NCBI GenBank assembly: GCA_043803745.1 | Contig: JAZDJS010000021.1 | Coordinates: 16,738-80,737, forward strand | Length of the DNA stretch: 64,000 bases | Source of the DNA: an archaeon | GTDB taxonomy: Archaea; SpSt-1190; DYHY01 | Reading direction: 5' to 3' | Part shown: piece by piece, positions 1 to 58,193 of the stretch | Numbering within the stretch: position 1 is the first letter of the stretch | Layout: each line of letters begins with the position of its first letter | Notes under the pieces: generated by a model | Seen by the model: only the letters and a program-made list of their open reading frames with translations | Told to the model about the DNA's origin: nothing | Database searches by the model: none | Made by a program: the position numbers and the translations under genes

Positions 1-1648
1 AAGATGTAGTCAAGGATCTCGTCCGTAAGGTCTGCCGGAGTCAGTTTCTCCTCCTTGATTATGTGGGAAACTGTGTAGTAAGCCATGTAAATCACCGAAT
101 CCGAAAGGGTTTCGACAATCCAGGATTTGTCCCAGGGCAAAGGGGTGCCGAGCCCGGAGCGGCGGGCGCAGGCCTTGTCATGGAGCCAGTCGACCGTGTT
201 CTCGAACTGGGTCCGGTAGGTTTCGGGACGGAAGTTCATTTTCGAGATTGCCTTCTTCACTTTGACCTTCCAGGCTTCGTCGGAGAATTTCAGGAACCAC
301 TGGTTCTCGAGAATCTTCACAATGCAGGTCGTTCCGCAGCGGCAGACAACATTGTCGTCGGCTTCCCAGATGAAATCCAGGATTCCCGCCGCGAAGAAAT
401 CTTTCTTAAGCTGCTCCTTGCATGCGTCAACGGACATCCCGGCGTATTTGCCGGAGACTGGGAGCATCTTTCCCTCGTGATGTTCCTTCCGGTAAATTTC
501 CTCCTTCGCCTTCTGGAGCTTGTCGGCATCCTTCTGGCTTGATATTCCGAGGCGCTCGACAATCTCCTTCGAGGGATGCTCGCCATATCCCGGGACGGTT
601 ATCACCGCAACGGGCGTCAGCGAAGAGATTTCTTCGGGGTCGATCCCGTATTCGCTGAGGATGGAGGGATTTTTCTTCAAATCCTCCTCCCCGACCCAGT
701 CGAAAGGGGCGTGCGAGGGAACGGACATCACAACCCCCGTCGTATGGCTACCATCTACGAAGTCGGCTGGAAGGATTATCATCCATTTGCCGTTCGCCGG
801 ATTCCTGCATTTCTTCCCGAAGAATTCCCTCGGGCTGAAAGGCGGGCTGACCTCCCCGACATCATTCCGCTGGTTCCGGAGTTTCTCAACCGACTTTTCC
901 GAGACAATCCAGGTTTCCTTTCCGATTTTCACGTCAACATACTTTTCGCTAGGATTGAGGAACATCGAAGTCACTCCGAAGATTGTTTCGGGCCGGAGGG
1001 TTGCCGGGGTGAGGATTCTCCCGTCCTCGAGAGGGAACTTGAGAATTGAAAAGTCCTGGGGACTTGCGCCCTCCCCGTAAAGTCGGTCATGGTCGCCGGT
1101 CGGGCTCTGGCATCTTGTGCAGTAGATTACCGGATGAGTCCCCTGGACAACATATCCCAGCGCGCGGAGGGTGTTGTATTGCCATTCGATGAAGCGGGAG
1201 AATGTCGGGGTGAGCTGCGTCGTGACGAAGGTCCTCCTCCAGTCAATCGAGCCTCCGATTGCGTCAAGGGTTTCCTTGAAAATCCCCTTCCAATAGTTCA
1301 CAATGTAGACCGGTTCGGTGAACTTGCCCAGTTCCCCTTCCGGGACCCCCGAATCAAGGAGAATTTGCCTCTGCTTCTCGTCGCCGGCTTTCAGGCGGGA
1401 GGCAACACCGGCAATAGGCTCGCCGGTCGCGTGGAAACCGAACGGGAAGAGGACGTTTTTTCCTTTCAGCCTTTGGAACCTTGCGGAAACGTCAAGGCGG
1501 GTGAATGTATAGCCATGCCCCATGTGCATTGCGCCGTTGACATATGGGAAGGGGAAAGTGAGGAAGAACTTTTGGCGCGAGTCTGGCTCCGCCTCGAAAA
1601 CCCGCTCCTCCTGCCAGGTTTTGGAGATTTCGGATTCTGATCGTTCCA
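1..1648 (-). CDS. leuS: Leucyl-tRNA synthetase, N-terminal part (the gene runs off the left edge of the window)
   Basis: Reverse-strand translation from the ATG at 1646-1648 gives MERSESEISKTWQEERVFEAEPDSRQKFFLTFPFPYVNGAMHMGHGYTFTRLDV...RFIEWQYNTLRALGYVVQGTHPVIYCTRCQSPTGDHD. This has the class I HxGH-type motif (HMGH) and strong resemblance to archaeal LeuRS (FIEWQF..GDHD block). The + strand ORFs in the track at 63-1640 are shadow ORFs. Confidence 0.85.
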
Positions 1649-1726: not shown

Positions 1727-2359
1727 TTGAATGTGGTCACAAACGTGGCGAAAGATTTCGTTGTTGTTACCGGGATTGGCGAGTTTTCTCTTCTTACTGA
1801 CCTTTTGGAAACTCCTGGAAGGGAAAATCTTGACCTAAAATATTCGGCGAGGGTTTCGACAGGCCTCTTGGGCCTCGCAACCTGTCCCGCAGGAAACGCT
1901 TCCTATGCCCCGAAAGGGATGCCGGATGTTCTTATTGCGGACGGGCCCGAAGGAGTCGCTGGCCTTGTTGCCCTTGGTTTCATACCTTGCCCTGTTTGCA
2001 AGCCGGAAGAGCAGGCGGATTTCTGGCCTGCTGTCGGGGAACTTGTCGGGGAGAAATATCCGGGGATAGCTTCGCCAAAGGATTTCGCTGACAAGGAAAA
2101 GGTTCCGTATGATGTCAGAGAAACGGCTCTGAAAGCAATAGTTTTGCGGACCGGAGCTTTCCCTAACCGGCTCTATCTTCCAAGAGACTTGAGCGAGCAA
2201 GAAATTCTGCAACTTGCGGCGAGGCTCGGAGACATTCAGGATCTTGTTTTGGCTGGCTCCGGAAAATCAATTCATCTGCCGCAGGTAGGATGTTACGACC
2301 GCGATGCGCCAGGTCACTTCAGGGAATACGAACTTCCAAAACTCAGGTCTGATATTTAG
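1727..2359 (+). CDS. Hypothetical protein (TTG start in the track)
   Basis: 210-aa ORF, convergent with the next gene. No recognisable motif. Confidence 0.35.
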   Translation: MNVVTNVAKDFVVVTGIGEFSLLTDLLETPGRENLDLKYSARVSTGLLGLATCPAGNASYAPKGMPDVLIADGPEGVAGLVALGFIPCPVCKPEEQADFWPAVGELVGEKYPGIASPKDFADKEKVPYDVRETALKAIVLRTGAFPNRLYLPRDLSEQEILQLAARLGDIQDLVLAGSGKSIHLPQVGCYDRDAPGHFREYELPKLRSDI

Positions 2360-3032
2360 CAGCCGCTCTCCCAAGGAATTCGGCGGGAATTTTCGCAGTT
2401 CTCAGGTTGTCCCGCAGGAGTCCGAGAGCGACCGCATCCAAGTAATCTGAATGGCTCCCAGCGAAATCTCCAATGTGCAGAACGCCCCTTTCCGCTTTGT
2501 CGAGGTTCTCTTGAACAACCTCCTCTATCCGCGACCGCTCAGCCCTTCGTAAAGTTGGCTCGATTTTCCCGTTTTCTTTTCCAAGAACCTGTGCAATGGC
2601 AGCCATTGTGCAGGGCGTCTCGACAACAGTGTAAGAATATACATCGCCCTCCCTTGAGAGAATTGCCAGCATACGGAGATTCTCGGTAGCATAGCGAGAA
2701 TATTCCCCAACGCAGTAAACAACGCTCCCGTCCGATTCGGGCTCAGGGGAAATCCGGGCATACATGTCCGCTATTGCCCAAGCATCCCTGCGGGGATGAG
2801 GCATTTCAAGAAAATATTCAATTATTTCTTCCTCAGGGTATATCTCGCCGGGTTTTGCCAGATCGTCTATCCACAAAATCGCGCTCGCAGGATCCCTTTC
2901 AAGGGAGCCTATTTCTAAGGAAAAATCCAGGAACGCCTGAAGGTCCCCCTTTTCTTCGGATTCTGCAAGCTTTTCGCGCAGTCTGGGGACTAGTTTTTCA
3001 TTCGCAAAGGCGGCATAATCCCGGACAAACAT
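2343..3032 (-). CDS. Hypothetical protein
   Basis: 229-aa ORF with acidic, protein-like composition. No recognised domain. Confidence 0.45.
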   Translation of the reverse strand: MFVRDYAAFANEKLVPRLREKLAESEEKGDLQAFLDFSLEIGSLERDPASAILWIDDLAKPGEIYPEEEIIEYFLEMPHPRRDAWAIADMYARISPEPESDGSVVYCVGEYSRYATENLRMLAILSREGDVYSYTVVETPCTMAAIAQVLGKENGKIEPTLRRAERSRIEEVVQENLDKAERGVLHIGDFAGSHSDYLDAVALGLLRDNLRTAKIPAEFLGRAAAKYQT

Positions 3033-3165: not shown

Positions 3166-3365
3166 TTTTCTTTTGCGCCCGTCAACGGAGCTTTTCTTTT
3201 GCGAAAAGAAAAGATGGGTTGGGAGTGGACTGGACGGGAGTCCCCTACCGGACTTCGGCTAGCGCCTCAGGAACCCGTGACAGTGGGGTTTTCTTTTGCG
3301 CCCGTCAACGGAGCTTTTCTTTTGCGAAAAGAAAAGATGGGTTGGGAGTGGACTGGACGGGAGTC
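3166..3365. repeat. Tandem direct repeat with a 123-bp period. Copies are about 77 nt and about 74 nt are identical. Each copy ends with the last 17 nt of tRNA-Ala (tggactggacgggagtc) preceded by a conserved palindromic trailer.
   Basis: Copy 1 is at about 3166-3242 and copy 2 at 3287-3365. Copy 2 overlaps the 3-prime end of the tRNA-Ala gene. The 44-nt spacer at 3243-3286 contains gaacccgtgac, which is a T-arm fragment. Confidence 0.9.
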
Positions 3366-3420
3366 GAACCCGTGACCTCAGCGTTGCGAACGCCGCATTC
3401 TACCACTGAACTACCAGCCC
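3349..3420 (-). tRNA. tRNA-Ala (anticodon CGC)
   Basis: The reverse complement folds as GGGCTGG-TA-GTTC..GAAT-GCGGCG TTCGCAA CGCTGA-GGTC-ACGGG TTCGACT CCCGT-CCAGTCC-A. The G3:U70 pair is the alanine identity element. The anticodon loop is TTCGCAA. CCA is not encoded. Confidence 0.85.
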
Positions 3421-3606
3421 GTGCGTCTATCCAAGTTCAGTGGCGGTATATTAGCATTCCTGAGCCATCAGGCAAAGTCCGTGAGCGCACGGATACCACT
3501 GAACTACCCGCCCTTTTTTTACTGAACCCGAGCCATCGCAGGCGAGGTCCGCGCTTGATGCACGGATACCGGCCCTTGAACTTTTGGAAACTCTTCCGGG
3601 TTTTTA
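3421..3606 (-). other. Two tandem degenerate units of about 90 nt upstream of tRNA-Ala. They contain tRNA-like 5-prime fragments (GGGCGGGTAGTTCAGTGGTA on the minus strand), hairpins (TCCGTGCGCTCACGGA; CCTGATGGCTCAGG) and A/T runs. This is a possible structured ncRNA or pseudo-tRNA.
   Basis: The minus-strand read gives GGGCCGGTATCCGTGCATCAAGCGCGGACCTCGCCTGCGATGGCTCGGG.. and GGGCGGGTAGTTCAGTGGTATCCGTGCGCTCACGGACTTTGCCTGATGGCTCAGG.. The units are homologous to each other. The + strand copies end in T7 and T5 runs. Confidence 0.3.
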
Positions 3607-3668
3607 ATAGATTCTGTAGGTCTGCAAAGGTAAGATATTTAAATAATCACTAGGTAATGATGAATTAG

Positions 3669-4076
3669 ATGACTAAAAAGAGGGGCTACGCACTGCGCGT
3701 CGGGGAGTATCTTCACGAGCTTTGGCCCAACGCAATCCTCTGCCGCCCTGACAAGGAAATCCCTCAGAAAAACGGAAAGAGGCCTGACTGGCTTGTTCTC
3801 GACTCGGTTGATGAGCTTGACGGACGGACAACATATCGAGTTTTTCCCGTTGAAGTCAAACAGAGACACGCGCTGGATGGAGAAGAACAAATACGCAGGG
3901 CGACTACAAGGGCTGTTGTCGATTTTTACCGCAGAAGACCTGATGTAAGACCTGCGGTGACTGAAATTCTCCGGGGAAGTTGGGAACTTCTTCCAGGGTA
4001 TGTTGCTTCATCTGAATCGCCTCCGGAAGGCGCGCCAATTCAACACCTGCTCGTTCCTTTGAGCTATCATCGTTGA
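3669..4076 (+). CDS. hjc: PD-(D/E)xK nuclease, probably Holliday junction resolvase Hjc
   Basis: 135 aa. KKRGYALRVGEYLHEL ... PDWLVLD ... VFPVEVKQR matches the Hjc motifs (KRKG..E..; PDIIA; LIEVKS). A TATA-like ATATTTAAATAA lies about 26 bp upstream. Confidence 0.55.
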   Translation: MTKKRGYALRVGEYLHELWPNAILCRPDKEIPQKNGKRPDWLVLDSVDELDGRTTYRVFPVEVKQRHALDGEEQIRRATTRAVVDFYRRRPDVRPAVTEILRGSWELLPGYVASSESPPEGAPIQHLLVPLSYHR

Positions 4077-5275
4077 GCGCTTCTCAAATCCCGTTTAGGA
4101 AACAGGAAAATCCCCAGCGCGAACAGAGGAATGACTGCGGCGAATGCGAATGCTGCAGAAGGCCCGGAATATTTCCAGAGGAGCCCCGCAATAGCCGAAG
4201 CTGGAAGATAGACAAGCCCGGTTACGAAGCTGTAGAGACCGATTGCGCTTGCCCGGGTCTCCTTTGCGGATGTGTCGGAGATGTAGGCTTTGCTCTGCGC
4301 CTCGTCAAGCGTGTAGAAGATTCCGAAAAGGAGGAACAGGATGATTATCGTCTCCCGGGAATTCGCAAGAAGGAAGCCTATTGAGATTGCGGAGTACAGG
4401 ACATATTCTCCGGCAACAAGATATTTCCGGCCTATCTTGTCGCCCAGTTTCCCGAGGGGGACTGCAAACAGGAAGAAGGAAACGTTGAAGGTTGCATAGA
4501 GGAGAACGACCTCGCTTGCGGAGAAGCCGACAAGATATGCCTTGAGGAGGAGGAAGGAGAAGCTGAAATAGGAAAGGGAGAAGACTGCCGAGGAAAGAAG
4601 GTAGCGCTTCAAATCCCCGGAGAGGGTTCCGAGAATCTGGAAGGGATTCGCGCGGATTGCTCTTTTCCTCGGCTTCCGGTCCTTCACGAAAAGGACAAGG
4701 ACAAGGACGGAAAGAATTGCGGGAACGAGAGCGACTGCGAAGAGGAACCGGAACGCTGAAGGGGTTTCCCCGAGGGACTTGAGAATCAGATATGCAACGA
4801 AAGGTCCCAAAATTGCCCCGGCCTTGTCAAGCATTTTGTGGATTCCGAACGAAGCCCCGGTCTTCCCTTCCGAGGAAATCGTTGATATTAGCGCATCTCT
4901 CGGAGCGCCGCGGATCGATTTTCCTAGGCGCTCGACAACCCGGAAAAGGGCTGCCCCGAAAACCGTCGGGAGGAAAAGGATTATTGATTTCGCAGCAGTC
5001 GAGAATCCGTAGCCGAAAACCGCGAACGGCTTTCTTTTGCCAGTTTTGTCGGAAAGGTAGCCGGAAACAAAGTCAAGGGAGGAGGCCGCGAAATCAGAAA
5101 GGCCCTCGACAAGCCCGAGGAGCGCCTGGGATGCCCCAAGGATTACAGTGAAGAAAACGGAGAAAACGGAGAAAATCATTTCCGAGCTTATGTCAGTCAG
5201 GAAGCTGACGATTCCTAGAATAATTATTTCTAGGGGAACCCCGAAAATCTGCCTTGGCTTTCTTTTCTCGCCCAT
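4067..5275 (-). CDS. MFS (major facilitator superfamily) transporter
   Basis: 402 aa with about 12 predicted TM helices and MFS-like loops (GxLSDKTGKRKP). Confidence 0.75.
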   Translation of the reverse strand: MGEKRKPRQIFGVPLEIIILGIVSFLTDISSEMIFSVFSVFFTVILGASQALLGLVEGLSDFAASSLDFVSGYLSDKTGKRKPFAVFGYGFSTAAKSIILFLPTVFGAALFRVVERLGKSIRGAPRDALISTISSEGKTGASFGIHKMLDKAGAILGPFVAYLILKSLGETPSAFRFLFAVALVPAILSVLVLVLFVKDRKPRKRAIRANPFQILGTLSGDLKRYLLSSAVFSLSYFSFSFLLLKAYLVGFSASEVVLLYATFNVSFFLFAVPLGKLGDKIGRKYLVAGEYVLYSAISIGFLLANSRETIIILFLLFGIFYTLDEAQSKAYISDTSAKETRASAIGLYSFVTGLVYLPASAIAGLLWKYSGPSAAFAFAAVIPLFALGIFLFPKRDLRSAQR

Positions 5276-5420: not shown

Positions 5421-5573
5421 AGGTTCTAAGGCTTGATGGTAGTTTATAAAATGAAGTTTTTCTTACGCCCGTCAACGGATTTTCTTTTTGCCAAAAAGAA
5501 AATGGGTTGGATGTTGACCGGATTTCGCTCTTATCTCGGCGTGCGTTAAGGCAAGGAGGGAGTTTATAAAATG
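5396..5573. repeat. Direct repeat with a 117-bp period. It duplicates the first roughly 28 nt of tRNA-Ser plus its TATA promoter (unit A 5396-5453, unit B 5513-5573, about 85% identical). The palindromic trailer element lies between the units.
   Basis: gttgaccggatttcgctatctcggcaggttctaaggcttgatggtagtttataaaatg versus gttgaccggatttcgctcttatctcggcgtgcgttaaggcaaggagggagtttataaaatg. Confidence 0.85.
5443..5450 (-). promoter_or_regulatory. Archaeal TATA box (TTTATAAA) for tRNA-Ser
   Basis: Palindromic TATA centred about 26 nt upstream of the tRNA 5-prime end. Confidence 0.6.
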
Positions 5574-27867: not shown

Positions 27868-28671
27868 GTGCCGGACAGGCAAAACCCACGAATGGACGGG
27901 AAAACCGCCGAAAAGGCAATTGAAAAATCCGGGCAGAACCTCCTGATCTTCCTGATAATCCTGACCTTCCTATACGTGATACTCCAAAACTTCTCGCCCT
28001 TTTTCAGGATTGCCGTCCCCCTTGCAACGGCAATCGCGGTCTACCGCACAATGAAGGCGTCGGAGAGAAAATCTCCTGAGACGATAGAAACGAAGACCTG
28101 GAAGCTTGTCGCAGTCTGCCTCGGAATATGGCTCGCAGGGGAGCTTTCGGTGGTTGCTTTTTTCGCCAGGGAGGGCTTCGTTCCCTATCCATCCCTTGCC
28201 GAAATTTCCTATCTCATCGGGTATGTGCTCATGGGCGCGGGGGCTTTCAGCATAATAAGGAAGGTCGATGTCAAGCTTCCGATAACGCACATCCTGACGT
28301 TCACCCTAGTGGTCCTGCTTTTTTCCGGAGCGGTGACAAACTTCGTTATAGCGCGCGCCCTTATGAGCGAAGCCCCTTTTCTCGAAAAGGCGTTCAACAT
28401 CGGCCTCCCGATTGCCGACATGATGCTGATAATAGTCGTTTTCGCAATCTACTTCGTCTACTTCGGTTCCGGAAGGAAGGAACGCCTCCTTGAAGAAAGC
28501 TGGGCCGTTGTAATACTCGGAATGACCTTTTCGGCTTTCGCGGACATAATAATGACGTACAGCAAGATAAGGCTAATCGATTCGATTTACCTTGCGCTCC
28601 TCCCCGGAATCCTCTACATCTGGTCGCGGGGGGTTGTCGGGCTTGGAGCGAAGGCGCGGTCTTCCAACTGA
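27868..28671 (+). CDS. Integral membrane protein
   Basis: 267 aa, multi-TM. It is followed by the hairpin CCCCCCTAACGGGGGG plus a T-rich tract, a terminator-like structure at 28713-28740. Confidence 0.5.
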   Translation: MPDRQNPRMDGKTAEKAIEKSGQNLLIFLIILTFLYVILQNFSPFFRIAVPLATAIAVYRTMKASERKSPETIETKTWKLVAVCLGIWLAGELSVVAFFAREGFVPYPSLAEISYLIGYVLMGAGAFSIIRKVDVKLPITHILTFTLVVLLFSGAVTNFVIARALMSEAPFLEKAFNIGLPIADMMLIIVVFAIYFVYFGSGRKERLLEESWAVVILGMTFSAFADIIMTYSKIRLIDSIYLALLPGILYIWSRGVVGLGAKARSSN

Positions 28672-28712
28672 ACTACCTGCCCGTCAAAGATCCCCCCTAA
28701 CGGGGGGCTTTC

Positions 28713-35851: not shown

Positions 35852-36029
35852 CCGTGCTCCCGACGGTTGAGTCATCTTCAGAGGACGAAATCTCGGGACG
35901 CGAGCGCGTTAGACCCGCCAGACGAAAAAGTGCGAGTGCTCCCGACGGTTGAGTCATCTTCAGAGGACGAAATCTCGGGACGCGAGCGCGTTAGACCCGC
36001 CAGACGAAAAAGTGCGAGTGCTCCCGACG
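35852..36029. repeat. Perfect tandem repeat of 2 x 82 bp plus a 13-nt third start. Each unit begins with the last 13 nt of tRNA-Glu (gtgctcccgacgg) followed by 69 nt of trailer.
   Basis: Units at 35852-35933 and 35934-36015 are identical. The third unit is the tRNA 3-prime end itself. Confidence 0.9.
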
Positions 36030-36091
36030 GGATTTGAACCCGTGTCTCGGGCTCGAGAAGCCCAGATCCTTGGCCGAGCTAGACGACAGGA
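36017..36091 (-). tRNA. tRNA-Glu (anticodon CTC)
   Basis: The reverse complement is GCTCCTG-TCGTCTAGCTCGGCCAAGGATC-TGGGC TTCTCGA GCCCG-AGAC-ACGGG TTCAAAT CCCGT-CGGGAGC-A. Confidence 0.85.
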
Positions 36092-36187: not shown

Positions 36188-36305
36188 GGGTCCATAGCTC
36201 AGCCCGGTAGAGCGGCAGTCTTATATGACTGTGTTCTATACACAAAGGATAGACTAGGTCTGAGTCAGCTGTTGGTCATGGGTTCGAATCCCATTGGGCC
36301 CACCA
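36188..36305 (+). tRNA. Intron-containing tRNA (118 nt including the encoded CCA). The tentative mature anticodon loop is CTTATAA, giving anticodon UAU (tRNA-Ile2 type). The isotype is uncertain.
   Basis: GGGTCCA-TA-GCTC AGCCCGGTA GAGC-G-GCAGT CTTATA | 41-nt intron (contains the hairpin TGTGTTCTATACACA) | A-GCTGT-TGGTC-ATGGG TTCGAAT CCCAT-TGGGCCC-A-CCA. The acceptor has a G4:U pair. A GCCCC-TTCA-GGGGC hairpin follows immediately. Confidence 0.65.
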
Positions 36306-36365: not shown

Positions 36366-36410
36366 CATTGGGCCCACCAGAGCCCGTTTTCTTTTCCGAA
36401 AGAAAAAGCC
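36366..36410 (+). repeat. Copy of the tRNA 3-prime end (cattgggcccacca) 74 bp downstream of the intron-containing tRNA, followed by the palindromic trailer (gcccgttttcttttccgaaagaaaaag)
   Basis: 14-nt exact copy at 36366-36379. The trailer at 36381-36410 is similar to the elements at 3176-3222 and 5463-5510. Confidence 0.7.
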
Positions 36411-36426
36411 TTCGGGGAAAAAGAAA

Positions 36427-37326
36427 TCATTGGAGCGGGAAATACCTGCAAAAGGCGCAGAGCTTTCCCGAGGTCGGCTCCCTGCCGCAGGAGGGACAGA
36501 GCCGCGTCTCCTTCCCGAGGAGGGGGGCAAAAACCGGCTGGCCCTTGGAAAGATAGCTCAAGTAGAATTTCAGCCTGAATCCCGGTTCCCTCTTTTCAGC
36601 TGAAGAGAGGATTGCTTGCCACTTTTCCGTCTTCGGCTCCTTTGAAAAATTGCATTTCTTCTTCAAGTAGGGGAGTTTGAATAGTTTCGCCCAGTTTGAA
36701 AGCTCCTCCTTCGAGAAGAGGCAGAGCGGCTTTACCTTCTTCCCGAATCCAGGCAAGAGGCCGGAAACAATGGGAGTTCTCCGGGAAAGAATGTCTGGAT
36801 TCCAGGAATATACGCCGCCGAAAATCGCGGCTGTTTCGTCGTCAAGGTGATGGCCGGTTGCGAACGGGATTCCGGATTCCCGCGCCTCCCGGTTCAGGAG
36901 GGCGTTCCTTATTTCGCTGCAGGTTGCGCAGGGGTTTCGCCCCGTTCTTGAAAGTATTTCCCCGAGGGATTTATCCGGCTTTAGCAGCTTCAACTCAACG
37001 CCGCAGAAGCCGGAAATTCTCTCCGCAGCTTTTCTCGATTTGACTGAGAAAGCCCCGTTGCCCAAATCAACATGGATTGCGCGGACATTGAAACCGGCAA
37101 GCTTGAGCGAGTGGCAGAGGACGGAGCTGTCAAGGCCTCCGGAAAGCGCGACAAGGAAGGAGTTTCCCATCTGGAAATTCTTGACAGTCCAGTTTATTCT
37201 CCGAAGGAACCATTCCTTGTAATGCTCCCTGCAAAGGTCGTATTTGTGAGCCGGGAGGTGGAAGATTGCCTTTTTCTTCGCCGGGGCGTTCTTCTTGATG
37301 CAGATTGTGCAGTAAGGTGAAGACAC
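36427..37326 (-). CDS. PP-loop ATP pyrophosphatase of the TtcA/NcsA (Ctu1-like) tRNA thiolation family
   Basis: SGGLDSSV PP-loop, N-terminal CxxC and C-terminal CPSCG..CAFC zinc/Fe-S cysteines. Confidence 0.6.
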   Translation of the reverse strand: MSSPYCTICIKKNAPAKKKAIFHLPAHKYDLCREHYKEWFLRRINWTVKNFQMGNSFLVALSGGLDSSVLCHSLKLAGFNVRAIHVDLGNGAFSVKSRKAAERISGFCGVELKLLKPDKSLGEILSRTGRNPCATCSEIRNALLNREARESGIPFATGHHLDDETAAIFGGVYSWNPDILSRRTPIVSGLLPGFGKKVKPLCLFSKEELSNWAKLFKLPYLKKKCNFSKEPKTEKWQAILSSAEKREPGFRLKFYLSYLSKGQPVFAPLLGKETRLCPSCGREPTSGKLCAFCRYFPLQ

Positions 37327-51171: not shown

Positions 51172-52237
51172 CGAATAGGCTTGCTAGTTTCAGATACTTC
51201 CCCTCCCAGGAAAGGAATGCATTCTTGTCAAGGAAAAAGACCAGGCAGCCGCCGAAAATGAGCCCGACCGAGTGAGGCCAAGGGGCTTCCGGGGTCCCCT
51301 CCCGGGTTTTCTCGGTCACCGAAAGCTGGTATGCTTTCCGTTCTATTTCCCTCCGTTCGGTTGAAATCGTCTTCTTATCCCCGCTCGTCTCAAGGATGTC
51401 GCGGGAAATCAGCGTCATTTTCCGGGATTCGTCGGTAATGTTTCCGTCAAGGCGCGAGAGTTCCAGGAGGATTTCCTGCGCCTGGCTCGAATAGGCCGCC
51501 TCGCTGATTTTCCCGGAAGCCTTCTGCTCGTCAATAAGCTTGAGGCGTTCCTCGAGCTGGGCGCGGGTCTCCTGCTTCTCGGAAATTGTCCGGTTTATTT
51601 CGTTGCGCTCGGACGAAAGGTTCATTATTTTTTCCCAGAGGATCGAGTCAACCGTTGAAAGCACGTCCCGCTCAGCGGCAATCCTTTCGACGAACGCGGT
51701 TTCGACAGAGTCAACTGCCCTGACAACGATTGGAGCGAAAAGGTTTATTGCCGCGACGAAAAGCGTCATCGAGAGGAAGGGCCTGAGGACAACTGCGGCG
51801 CCTATCAGCCCGAATACCGCCCCGCTCGAGCCAATCAGGGTCTTCGTCGGGAAGAAAAGCAGGTTCACAAGACCCCCGAGAAAGCCGGAGGAAAGGAAAA
51901 TCAGGAGGGTTTTCCAGCCGCCGATTCTCCTTTCGACAATTGTTCCGAATACAAGTAGGAGCATCCCGTCGACAAGAAGGTGGCTTGGCCAGAGATGGAT
52001 GAACATGTATGTGAGGATGGACCAGGGAGCGTTGTAGTGGAGGCCGAGGGTTGCAAGAAAGTCATAGGAGGGGGAAACGAAGGGGAAGAAGCTCACCGAG
52101 AGATAGTAGATGAAAAGCGTTATTGAGAAAATGTATAGGGTGACCAGGGGGAGCCATTCCCGACCCGGAAGCTCCCGCTTCGGGGGGGCTGCTTTCGCCG
52201 AATTTCCGGAAGCGGCGCCGCGCCTTTTCTTCGGCAT
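51146..52237 (-). CDS. Rhomboid-family intramembrane serine protease with a coiled-coil extension
   Basis: GSSGAVFGLIGA (GxSG catalytic Ser) and a later TM His. The C-terminal half is predicted coiled coil. Confidence 0.65.
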   Translation of the reverse strand: MPKKRRGAASGNSAKAAPPKRELPGREWLPLVTLYIFSITLFIYYLSVSFFPFVSPSYDFLATLGLHYNAPWSILTYMFIHLWPSHLLVDGMLLLVFGTIVERRIGGWKTLLIFLSSGFLGGLVNLLFFPTKTLIGSSGAVFGLIGAAVVLRPFLSMTLFVAAINLFAPIVVRAVDSVETAFVERIAAERDVLSTVDSILWEKIMNLSSERNEINRTISEKQETRAQLEERLKLIDEQKASGKISEAAYSSQAQEILLELSRLDGNITDESRKMTLISRDILETSGDKKTISTERREIERKAYQLSVTEKTREGTPEAPWPHSVGLIFGGCLVFFLDKNAFLSWEGKYLKLASLFVRRGKPAD

Positions 52238-52255: not shown

Positions 52256-52462
52256 TTACTTGAGGGCGCCGCGCCTTTTCGCGCACTTGAAACACAGGTA
52301 AAGCTTCTGCGTAGGACGGTAATATTTCCCGATAAAGTTCTTCCCGCCCGTAAGCCCCTTGTCAATCATTGGCTTGTGCTGCACAATCGCCCTTGACTGG
52401 GGGATTCTTCTATGGCATGAATCGCAGGTAATCACCTTTTCGCTTCCTCTTGCTCCGCTCAT
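52256..52462 (-). CDS. Small zinc-ribbon protein, possibly ribosomal protein eS26-like
   Basis: 68 aa. ITCDSCHRRIPQSRAI...KLYLCFKCAKRRG follows the C-x2-C ... YxC-x2-CA pattern of eS26. Confidence 0.3.
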   Translation of the reverse strand: MSGARGSEKVITCDSCHRRIPQSRAIVQHKPMIDKGLTGGKNFIGKYYRPTQKLYLCFKCAKRRGALK

Positions 52463-57924: not shown

Positions 57925-58002
57925 GGACCCGTAGCTTAGCTTGGATAGAGCGAGTGGCTTCGAACCACTAGGTCGGGGGTCCAAATCCCTCCGGGTCCGC
58001 CA
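57925..58002 (+). tRNA. tRNA-Arg (anticodon TCG), CCA encoded
   Basis: GGACCCG-TA-GCTT AGCTTGGATA GAGC-G-AGTGG CTTCGAA CCACT-AGGTC-GGGGG TCCAAAT CCCTC-CGGGTCC-G-CCA. Confidence 0.85.
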
Positions 58003-58130
58003 AGCGTCCCCTCAGATCTCGCCCAGGTGAAAGCGCGCATAATAGGCTTGACCTCCGGGTCCGCCAAGCGTCCCCTCAGATCTCGCCCAGGTGAAAGCGC
58101 GCATAATAGGCTTGACCTCCGGGTCCGCCA
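57990..58130. repeat. Tandem repeat of 64 bp x 2.2. Each unit starts with the last 13 nt of tRNA-Arg(TCG) including CCA (tccgggtccgcca).
   Basis: Units at 57990-58053 and 58054-58117 are identical. A third start at 58118-58130 then diverges. Confidence 0.9.
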
Positions 58131-58193
58131 GAACCCATCCTCCGCGGAGGATCCGTTCGCGGGCGTCAAAGAAAGGTTGTGAAAAACCATAAA

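Follow-up and report, generated by a model that had tools for sequence, protein, structure and literature searches.

Pieces of an archaeal tRNA-Ala gene, each interrupted by a conserved two-hairpin element that may be a miniature insertion element

Introduction

Non-functional partial copies of tRNA genes beside an intact copy are known from several archaea, where they derive from integrating elements. In Thermococcaceae (bioRxiv 10.1101/2022.07.05.498093) and at the tRNA-Thr gene of Caldiarchaeum (PMC3293823) 3' fragments lie downstream of the intact gene and a 5' fragment upstream, and in both studies such fragments are associated with mobile DNA and with the way in which disrupted tRNA genes have evolved. 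Separate 5' and 3' gene pieces are likewise found where a tRNA is split or tri-split, as in Nanoarchaeum and Caldivirga, or permuted (PMC3218864, PMC4033280), and related introns have spread among the tRNA genes of Thermoproteales (PMC4033280, PMC4090602). Here we describe a tRNA-Ala(CGC) locus at positions 3166-3606 of a 64-kb stretch of an archaeal contig (JAZDJS010000021.1; this whole stretch is called the window below), in which a working gene is accompanied by three pieces of the same gene, each interrupted by a short conserved two-hairpin element that we call E, with E' as its reverse complement. The closest documented phenomenon is the archaeal tRNA fragments left by integrating elements, and, by the logic of its insertion, E is closest to elements of the IS200/IS605 type.

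The locus departs from each of these systems in definite ways. In contrast to integration-derived fragments, the pieces lie 50-125 nt from the gene and not kilobases away, no recombinase gene separates them from it, and each is broken within a loop by a conserved hairpin element of 28-39 nt. As with split and permuted tRNAs there are separate 5' and 3' pieces, one of them behind a good promoter, but here there is neither a bulge-helix-bulge (BHB) splice motif nor a complementary leader/trailer pair, an intact gene with the same anticodon is present and the pieces do not sum to a tRNA. With non-canonical BHB introns E has in common that a related short sequence interrupts different tRNAs at loops, the T-loop included; however, E has no BHB, its hosts are fragments and it occurs in both orientations relative to the tRNA.

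The likeness to IS200/IS605 elements and their miniature derivatives lies in insertion without target duplication, in insertion directly 3' of a short motif on the element's strand (TTC at five of six sites, AAC at one) and in asymmetric ends, with one hairpin at each end and compensatory changes in the hairpins. The published accounts of TnpB (PMC8612924; bioRxiv 10.1101/2023.03.14.532601) describe its guide as the sequence flanking the right end of the transposon, and the geometry of E is alike, since the flank after the element is the sequence that follows the motif in the uninterrupted target. In contrast to IS200/IS605 elements, E comes without a TnpA (Y1) or TnpB gene in the open reading frames (ORFs) of the window or in the gene tables of its relatives, and its copies are diverged, confined to tRNA-derived DNA and of mixed absolute orientation within one locus. 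E is also just 28-39 nt long, whereas known miniature IS200/IS605 derivatives are an order of magnitude larger. Judged from sequence, E may be described as a miniature insertion element associated with tRNA-gene fragments, its membership in known families not being established.

Results

The intact tRNA-Ala(CGC) gene lies on the minus strand at 3349-3420, is called by both ARAGORN and Rfam (at 3348/3349-3420) and matches the Rfam model over its full length with 67.2 bits. Unless stated otherwise, the features of this locus are read on the same strand. Downstream of the gene come the first copy of a 60-nt trailer (3289-3348), a 7-nt junction filler CCCCACT (3282-3288) and then a T-arm/acceptor fragment. 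The fragment begins with a copy of tRNA positions 46-56, GTCACGGGTTC (3271-3281, an exact repeat of 3366-3376), which holds the end of the variable region, the 5' strand of the T-stem and the first three bases of the T-loop, and whose similarity to the tRNA body is significant against shuffles (p=0.002). Between positions 56 and 57 it is interrupted by the 28-nt insert CTGAGGCGCTAGCCGAAGTCCGGTAGGG (3243-3270), the third copy of E at the locus, which is on the plus strand, and it continues with positions 57-73, GACTCCCGTCCAGTCCA (3226-3242), a 17-mer identical to the gene and found twice in the window against 0.16 occurrences expected. The second trailer copy follows (3166-3225), identical to the first, so that positions 57-73 and the trailer together make up a perfect 77-nt direct repeat (3166-3242 versus 3289-3365). 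An earlier note on this DNA had described the fragment with its 28-nt insert and identical trailer, and its coordinates and sequences were verified.

Upstream of the gene are two further pieces. Unit A (62 nt, 3514-3575) consists of a copy of tRNA positions 1-9 with one mismatch (3567-3575), a 39-nt copy of the element, E_A (3528-3566), an exact copy of positions 10-16 (3521-3527) and a run of seven A (3514-3520). Unit B (93 nt in all, 3421-3513, of which 3454-3513 is tRNA-derived) consists of a copy of positions 1-20 with one mismatch (3494-3513), the 34-nt E_B (3460-3493) and a copy of positions 21-26, GAATGC (3454-3459). A second occurrence of the 20-mer from the tRNA 5' end, at one mismatch, is expected 0.00 times in the window, which bears out the earlier statement that one unit nearly equals the 5' end and D-arm of tRNA-Ala. 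The cores of the two units are similar to each other (local alignment, p ~0.0005 against shuffles); they are homologous, as had been proposed, but not both of about 90 nt. With the downstream fragment, they amount to three pieces of the tRNA-Ala gene around an intact one, and the idea of a small family of tRNA-Ala-derived pseudo-copies holds in this sense.

Read antisense to the tRNA, the T-loop inserts of the window and of the relatives named below can be aligned with the sense-strand cores of units A and B. What the earlier note had treated as separate features, the 28-nt insert and the hairpins of units A and B, is one conserved element, and the same phenomenon, also overlooked there, is found at other tRNAs and in related genomes. 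Relatives of the window were identified by tRNA sequence, among the matches listed, one each in genome and metagenome collections (L001, contig JBBIPP010000012.1 of a metagenome-assembled genome, and L002, a Joint Genome Institute metagenome contig), and through homologues of isoleucyl-tRNA synthetase (IleRS; L005 and L006, with 78% and 72% protein identity). Six copies, namely those of unit A, unit B, the Ala fragment, a Ser fragment in each of L001 and L002 and an Ile fragment in L006, were used for the alignment, the structure and a covariance model. The conserved core is about 40 nt long and folds into two hairpins, with 28-39 nt present in the copies of the Ala locus. Within the hairpins 85% of the alignment cells are paired, compared to 72% in column shuffles (none of 500 shuffles reaches 85%), five pairs have changed on both sides and slid controls give at most 52% pairing. 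Since the structure was derived from the same six sequences, this test is supportive and not decisive; the compensatory changes support the two conserved hairpins per unit that had been noticed before.

The covariance model scores 39-52 bits on its six training copies, with matches at 3522-3568 in unit A (43.6 bits), 3454-3495 in unit B (47.5 bits) and 3238-3276 on the plus strand in the Ala fragment (39.1 bits). A seventh copy, which was not in the training set, was found at 14388-14433 of L006 (33.6 bits, E-value 7e-7) inside a T-arm fragment of tRNA-Glu; this fragment reads CTCCGGGTTC, the element, AAATCCCGGC, and both of its T-stem strands match L006's own tRNA-Glu. In total, seven copies are present in four related genomes (the window, L001, L002 and L006), about 68% identical to one another and all within tRNA-derived DNA. 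All remaining matches in the ~177 kb searched score at most 13.6 bits, except for two viral loci at ~20-21 bits, which we judged to be chance and which had been retrieved with an E-derived pattern. Five scans of viral contigs with patterns for the fragment, the trailer module and the element gave nothing, or chance matches in coding DNA with no hairpin pairing and no tRNA nearby. No Rfam family matches E at permissive thresholds, and five more distant relatives (L003, L004, L007, L009 and L010) contain no tRNA genes and no copies of E. The minimum free energies of the fragments, with z between -2 and +1 relative to shuffles, are uninformative. A 34-nt inverted match of 71% between the T-loop insert and unit B was considered as a leader/trailer pair or as terminal inverted repeats and rejected, as the covariance model identifies it as the same element on opposite strands; on the insert alone the similarity is marginal (p ~0.07).

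In every copy the two flanks of the element are contiguous in the cognate tRNA. The break falls at tRNA position 9/10 in unit A (left flank GGGCCGGTA, right flank GTTCAGT) and at 20/21 in unit B (left flank ending in CAGTGGTA, right flank GAATGC). At the other four sites it is at 56/57, between GTCACGGGTTC and GACTCCCGTCCAGTCCA in the Ala fragment, between GGTTC and AAATCCCATTCTCGGCGC in the Ser fragment of L001 and L002 (E' of ~33 nt), between TTGGGTTC and AACTCCCATTGGGCC in the Ile fragment of L006 (E' of 34 nt) and between CCGGGTTC and AAATCCCGGC in the Glu fragment of the same genome. There is no target duplication at any of the six sites. On the E' strand the element is preceded by TTC at five of the six independent sites (GGTTC four times, CATTC once). 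According to the covariance-model matches E runs in tRNA sense in units A and B and antisense in all T-loop copies. This flip of orientation between 5' and 3' pieces excludes an RNA intron or a complementary leader/trailer pair, and orientation that flips together with the strand of the motif is the behaviour of a DNA insertion. All copies are also asymmetric in the same way. On the E' strand only 5-11 nt of cognate flank precede the element, and the flank that follows it extends as far as the gene does, to the 3' terminus of the tRNA in the T-loop copies and, in units A and B, to its reverse-complemented 5' terminus. Without exception the intact gene is found upstream of the element on this strand.

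Splicing of the pieces was addressed with a scan for the BHB geometry of a 4-bp central helix, 3-nt bulges with the cut sites and flanking helices. As a positive control, the canonical 41-nt intron of the tRNA at 36188-36305 of the window was recovered at 38|80. No BHB was found in units A and B or in the Ala, Ser, Ile and Glu fragments; at each of their junctions zero to three of the four central pairs are formed and the flanking helices are inadequate. A non-canonical BHB intron was also rejected as a candidate, there being no BHB and the T-loop copies being antisense to the tRNA. The pieces cover positions 1-26 and 45-73 of tRNA-Ala, so that positions 27-44 are absent and no complete tRNA can be assembled, and their order, 5' pieces, intact gene, 3' piece, is not a permuted one. 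Together with the presence of the intact gene these observations contradict the earlier suggestion of a split or permuted tRNA.

The tRNA-Ser gene of L001 and L002 is followed by its trailer, GGTTC, the insert and then the last 19 nt of tRNA-Ser. In L006, 1 kb of DNA with two small ORFs separates tRNA-Ile from its downstream T-arm/acceptor fragment. The junction TGTCACGGGTTC(C/T)TGAG of the window is also found in L002, ~120 nt downstream of tRNA-Ala. Since the leucyl-tRNA synthetase (LeuRS) proteins of the two are ~76% identical, the shared junction indicates that the T-loop insertion is old, and the 77-nt identity in the window must be due to later homogenisation or re-duplication. Between L001 and L002 the stretch of GGTTC, E' and tRNA-Ser 3' end is identical at 55 of 57 positions, while the neighbouring DNA is much more diverged (trailer 70%, spacer 55%, tRNA-Ala leader 54%; binomial P ~4e-10 against the background of 61%). 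One of the two differences is in a hairpin loop and the other changes a G-U pair to A-U. From this comparison of sequences, the Ser copy is either under constraint or kept uniform by some copying process. A tRNA-Ile 3' fragment is also present in L005 (5333-5366, minus strand; GGGTT-TTTGC-GAATCCCATTGGGCCC), with four extra bases at the site that holds E in L006; these could be the footprint of a lost element or an unrelated indel. The host of the window belongs to a deep-branching, unclassified archaeal lineage: only four relatives have IleRS proteins 63-78% identical to its own, and the next, at ~50%, include Asgard and DPANN sequences.

A TATA-like box, CTATTAAAAA (3601-3610), is found 25 nt upstream of unit A, and the 3' fragment has no recognisable box. 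The box is homologous to the conserved tRNA-Ala promoter box of L001 and L002 (..TGTATTAAAAAC..), which is kept between these two while the spacer around it is only ~55% identical, and it is probably the ancestral tRNA-Ala promoter. By this homology unit A would be the 5' end of the original gene with its promoter still attached. The 33-nt filler between unit B and the intact gene (3421-3453) contains another TATA-like box, TAATATA (3447-3453), which by its spacing alone is likely to be the present tRNA-Ala promoter. The filler also contains, at 3434-3443, a 10-nt perfect inverted copy of tRNA-Ala positions 9-18, which is an expected product of template switching during replication or repair.

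The trailer of tRNA-Ala combines a T-rich, terminator-like hairpin (CTTTTCTTTT/AAAAGAAAAG) with a second small hairpin (CCGTTGACGG). Related modules are found 3' of other tRNA genes in the window (3289-3348 for Ala itself, 5457-5512, 36381-36427 and 58131-58175) and in relatives (7173-7242 of L001), built of CCCA(A/T)C, a T-rich hairpin, a small hairpin (CCGTTGACGG, CCGTTCGCGG, CCTTCGGGG or CCCTTGAGGGG) and AAAGAAA. Such likeness of 3' flanks between different tRNA genes is unusual; the modules may act as a shared terminator or as a signal for processing, or they may have spread along with the repeated 3' ends.

The largest short-range direct repeats of the whole window are all at tRNA genes, which in this lineage are duplication hot spots. 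Besides the Ala locus, the 13-nt 3' end of tRNA-Glu is present in three copies with an 82-nt period (35854-36030), the 15-nt 3' end of the intron-containing tRNA in two (36292 and 36366) and the 15-nt 3' end of tRNA-Arg(TCG), including CCA, in three with a 64-nt period (57988-58130); tRNA-Arg(CCG) has no repeat. At the first three of these genes the tandem copies are 100% identical and separated by unrelated spacers of 49-69 nt without E; with filters off, the inserts of the Arg, Ile and Glu 3'-end repeats all score below 6 bits. The Glu arrangement is present in L005 in diverged form, with a weak trace of E in its insert (11.4 bits), and L006 has the E-bearing Glu fragment instead. The inserts of the 3' repeats at Arg, Ile, Glu and Ser were also considered as decayed tRNA bodies and rejected, their similarity not being significant, with the exception of the 11-nt Ala piece.

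At tRNA-Ser(TGA) the duplication is on the upstream side (5457-5540, minus strand) and comprises a second consensus promoter, TTTTATAAACT, with the same spacing, and a copy of tRNA positions 1-25, brought to 28 nt by a 3-nt insertion and directly fused to a trailer module ~80% like that of tRNA-Ala. The segment appears to have arisen by deletion from an ancestral pair of tRNA-Ser and tRNA-Ala genes. The sequence GGGCAGGTAGTTCAGTTGGAAGACCGCGCCTTCGC at 28648-28682 on the minus strand is similar to the 5'-most ~35 nt of a tRNA-Ala(CGC)-like gene (17 of the first 20 nt agree), and the TCCAAGCCC that comes after it is like the beginning of the trailer module; no tRNA is called here by ARAGORN or Rfam. 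The intron-containing tRNA (36188-36305, plus strand), missed by ARAGORN and found by Rfam, has its intron at the canonical position with a clean BHB. By our own parse its anticodon is TAT (Ile-UAU), and it encodes CCA in the window and not in its L005 and L006 orthologues.

In L001 and L002 the genes for tRNA-Ser, tRNA-Ala and LeuRS are adjacent, and in the window extra genes have been inserted (1727-3032 and 3669-5275). The interval between Ser and Ala contains an MFS transporter and a 135-aa ORF, and that between the Ala fragment and LeuRS (3-1637, minus strand) two orphan ORFs of 229 and 210 aa; for the protein of 229 aa no homologue besides itself was found among 5.8 billion sequences. 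The ~40 ORFs of the window that were scanned with Pfam are housekeeping genes (IleRS, LeuRS, FEN1, Orc1/Cdc6, DnaG-like, DnaK, HerA and others). Many ORFs of the window have no Pfam match. An exact 16-nt direct repeat, GGCGCCGCGCCTTTTC, is found at 52214-52229 and 52265-52280 on the plus strand, with 51-nt spacing, in the intergenic region after a rhomboid-family gene.

Discussion

The fragments at the tRNA-Ala locus neither form part of a tRNA nor undergo splicing. What they represent instead is most simply put as one working tRNA-Ala(CGC) gene with three non-functional pieces, each interrupted by E, with E acting as a DNA-level insertion element, an account whose chances of being right we put at about even. 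An insertion at the level of DNA follows from the position of E between bases that are adjacent in the tRNA, from the lack of target duplication and from its flipping orientation, and E may represent a novel type of very small insertion element that targets tRNA genes. Such an element would prefer loop or junction positions of tRNA-gene DNA and would have entered the tRNA-Ala gene on three separate occasions. Because a cell would not survive the interruption of an essential tRNA gene that it has only once, only those events could have persisted in which an intact copy was regenerated alongside. Presumably this happened through template switching or a partial duplication within the locus, after which one of the copies would have lost E or recombined with a chromosome copy free of E. 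Interrupted remainders would be left behind at each round, and the outcome would be nested as in the present locus, where the ancestral promoter abuts unit A, the ancestral trailer follows the 3' fragment and the present gene, with a new TATA box, sits in the centre. In favour of this scenario, five of the six tRNA genes of the window have short-range partial duplications, and these rank at the top of the local repeats in 64 kb.

Several observations weigh against E as an insertion element with inert remainders. The site in unit A is preceded by AAC and not by TTC. No transposase, integrase, TnpB or Cas1 was found by Pfam among the ~40 ORFs of the window, nor among the precomputed Pfam entries for the called genes of the relatives' contigs that were fetched. 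The ~68% identity between copies and the lack of dispersed copies outside tRNA DNA give no sign of recent transposition, and opposite absolute orientations within 350 nt do not fit the strand bias usual for single-strand transposons. Regeneration by duplication is a step that we infer rather than observe, and the evidence base is seven copies in four related genomes. Identity at 55 of 57 positions against a background of 61% is not expected of inert debris, and this conservation of element plus tRNA flank in one pair of relatives is left unexplained.

The conservation is what one would expect if element and tRNA-derived flank together formed a functional unit under selection, for example a scaffold-plus-guide small RNA or, in other variants, a decoy, an antisense RNA or a DNA-binding site near tRNA genes. 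We regard this as rather unlikely, though it has the L001/L002 pair on its side, in which the surroundings have drifted to 54-70% identity and the two differences spare the pairing. The same holds for the compensatory changes in both hairpins, for the flank asymmetry, which is the same in seven of seven copies, and for the window fragment, which has stayed identical to gene and trailer over 77 nt despite its old junction. The layout on the E' strand, of a short flank, TTC, a two-hairpin scaffold, 9-20 nt up to the end of the gene and in most copies a T-run soon after (a T7 run immediately follows unit B when this is reverse-complemented, and another lies 11 nt beyond the Ser fragment of L001), is that of a transposon right end with the flanking guide of TnpB-type nucleases, as described in the papers cited above, and an intact tRNA gene would then present TTC plus a matching target. 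However, by inspection there is no consistent promoter at a fixed distance from E, no nuclease gene was found nearby and minimum free energies are not below those of shuffles. The scaffold would be just 28-39 nt, while known TnpB and IscB guide-RNA scaffolds are far longer. Retention is also not universal, since the Ala copy of L002 and the Glu copies of the window and L005 are decayed and the Glu copy of L006 lacks the acceptor strand.

Going further, E with its flank might be a minimal guide module derived from a transposon end (two hairpins plus 17-20 nt matching the tRNA gene after TTC), which a postulated RNA-guided or hairpin-binding protein would use against tRNA genes or tRNAs of this deep archaeal lineage; more modestly, E might be the smallest known autonomous-in-trans insertion element, homing into loop-coding positions of tRNA genes. 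Drawn by analogy, these proposals are speculative and we consider them quite unlikely.

The fragments could instead be attachment-site scars of integrase-type elements that target tRNA 3' ends, with the intact gene as attL, the partial copy as attR and E as an arm of the element beside the core, the bodies of the elements having been lost later. Direct repeats of the tRNA 3' end, starting in the T-loop or T-stem, do lie downstream of the intact gene at five of the six window tRNAs, the Ile fragment of L006 is 1 kb downstream with its two small ORFs in between, the presence of fragments varies among relatives and tRNA fragments from integrating elements are documented in archaea (PMC3293823; bioRxiv 10.1101/2022.07.05.498093). 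We consider this origin quite unlikely. An att block would be contiguous, and the tRNA-derived block of the Ala, Ser, Ile and Glu fragments is interrupted by E, which sits within the cognate T-arm with cognate sequence on both sides and not beside a contiguous block of identity. E is also found in the 5' pieces, at 9/10 and 20/21 and in opposite orientation, and at five loci the supposed element bodies all measure 46-69 nt, a more uniform size than random deletion would leave. In addition, no integrase or other recombinase was found among the ~40 window ORFs or in the gene tables of the relatives' contigs, and the viral contigs have no match to the element or the trailer module beyond chance. 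Target duplications of the casposon or transposase type were also considered and rejected, with repeat lengths of 13-77 nt and inserts that by inspection have no terminal inverted repeats.

Non-canonical tRNA introns of some archaea do sit at loop positions such as 20/21 and 56/57. That the pieces belong to a split, tri-split or permuted tRNA, or to a tRNA half whose T-loop has a non-canonical intron, and that they are transcribed separately and joined by splicing endonuclease and ligase, is nevertheless hardly credible here: the host is deep-branching (nearest IleRS outside the clade from Asgard and DPANN at ~50%), positions 20/21 and 56/57 lie in loops and unit A begins at the predicted transcription start of a good promoter, but no BHB is found at the junctions by a scan that does recover the control intron, the locus has an intact tRNA-Ala(CGC), positions 27-44 are missing from the pieces, the orientation of the element flips between 5' and 3' pieces and the complementarity of insert and unit B is that of one element on two strands (p ~0.07 on the insert alone).

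Fragments of tRNA genes are commonly written off as remains of integration or, in archaea, held up as hints of split tRNAs, and they can mislead tRNA annotation and searches for split tRNAs in metagenome-assembled genomes. Here a specific element of ~30 nt with conserved structure is found inside them. At a single locus it has reached three different loop positions, and in relatives it has entered three further tRNAs at the T-loop. If the unit of element plus flank is expressed, it could represent a new class of small RNA directed at tRNA genes. If E is mobile, it would be an unusually small element with an unusual target and a route to disrupted, duplicated and re-promoted tRNA genes.

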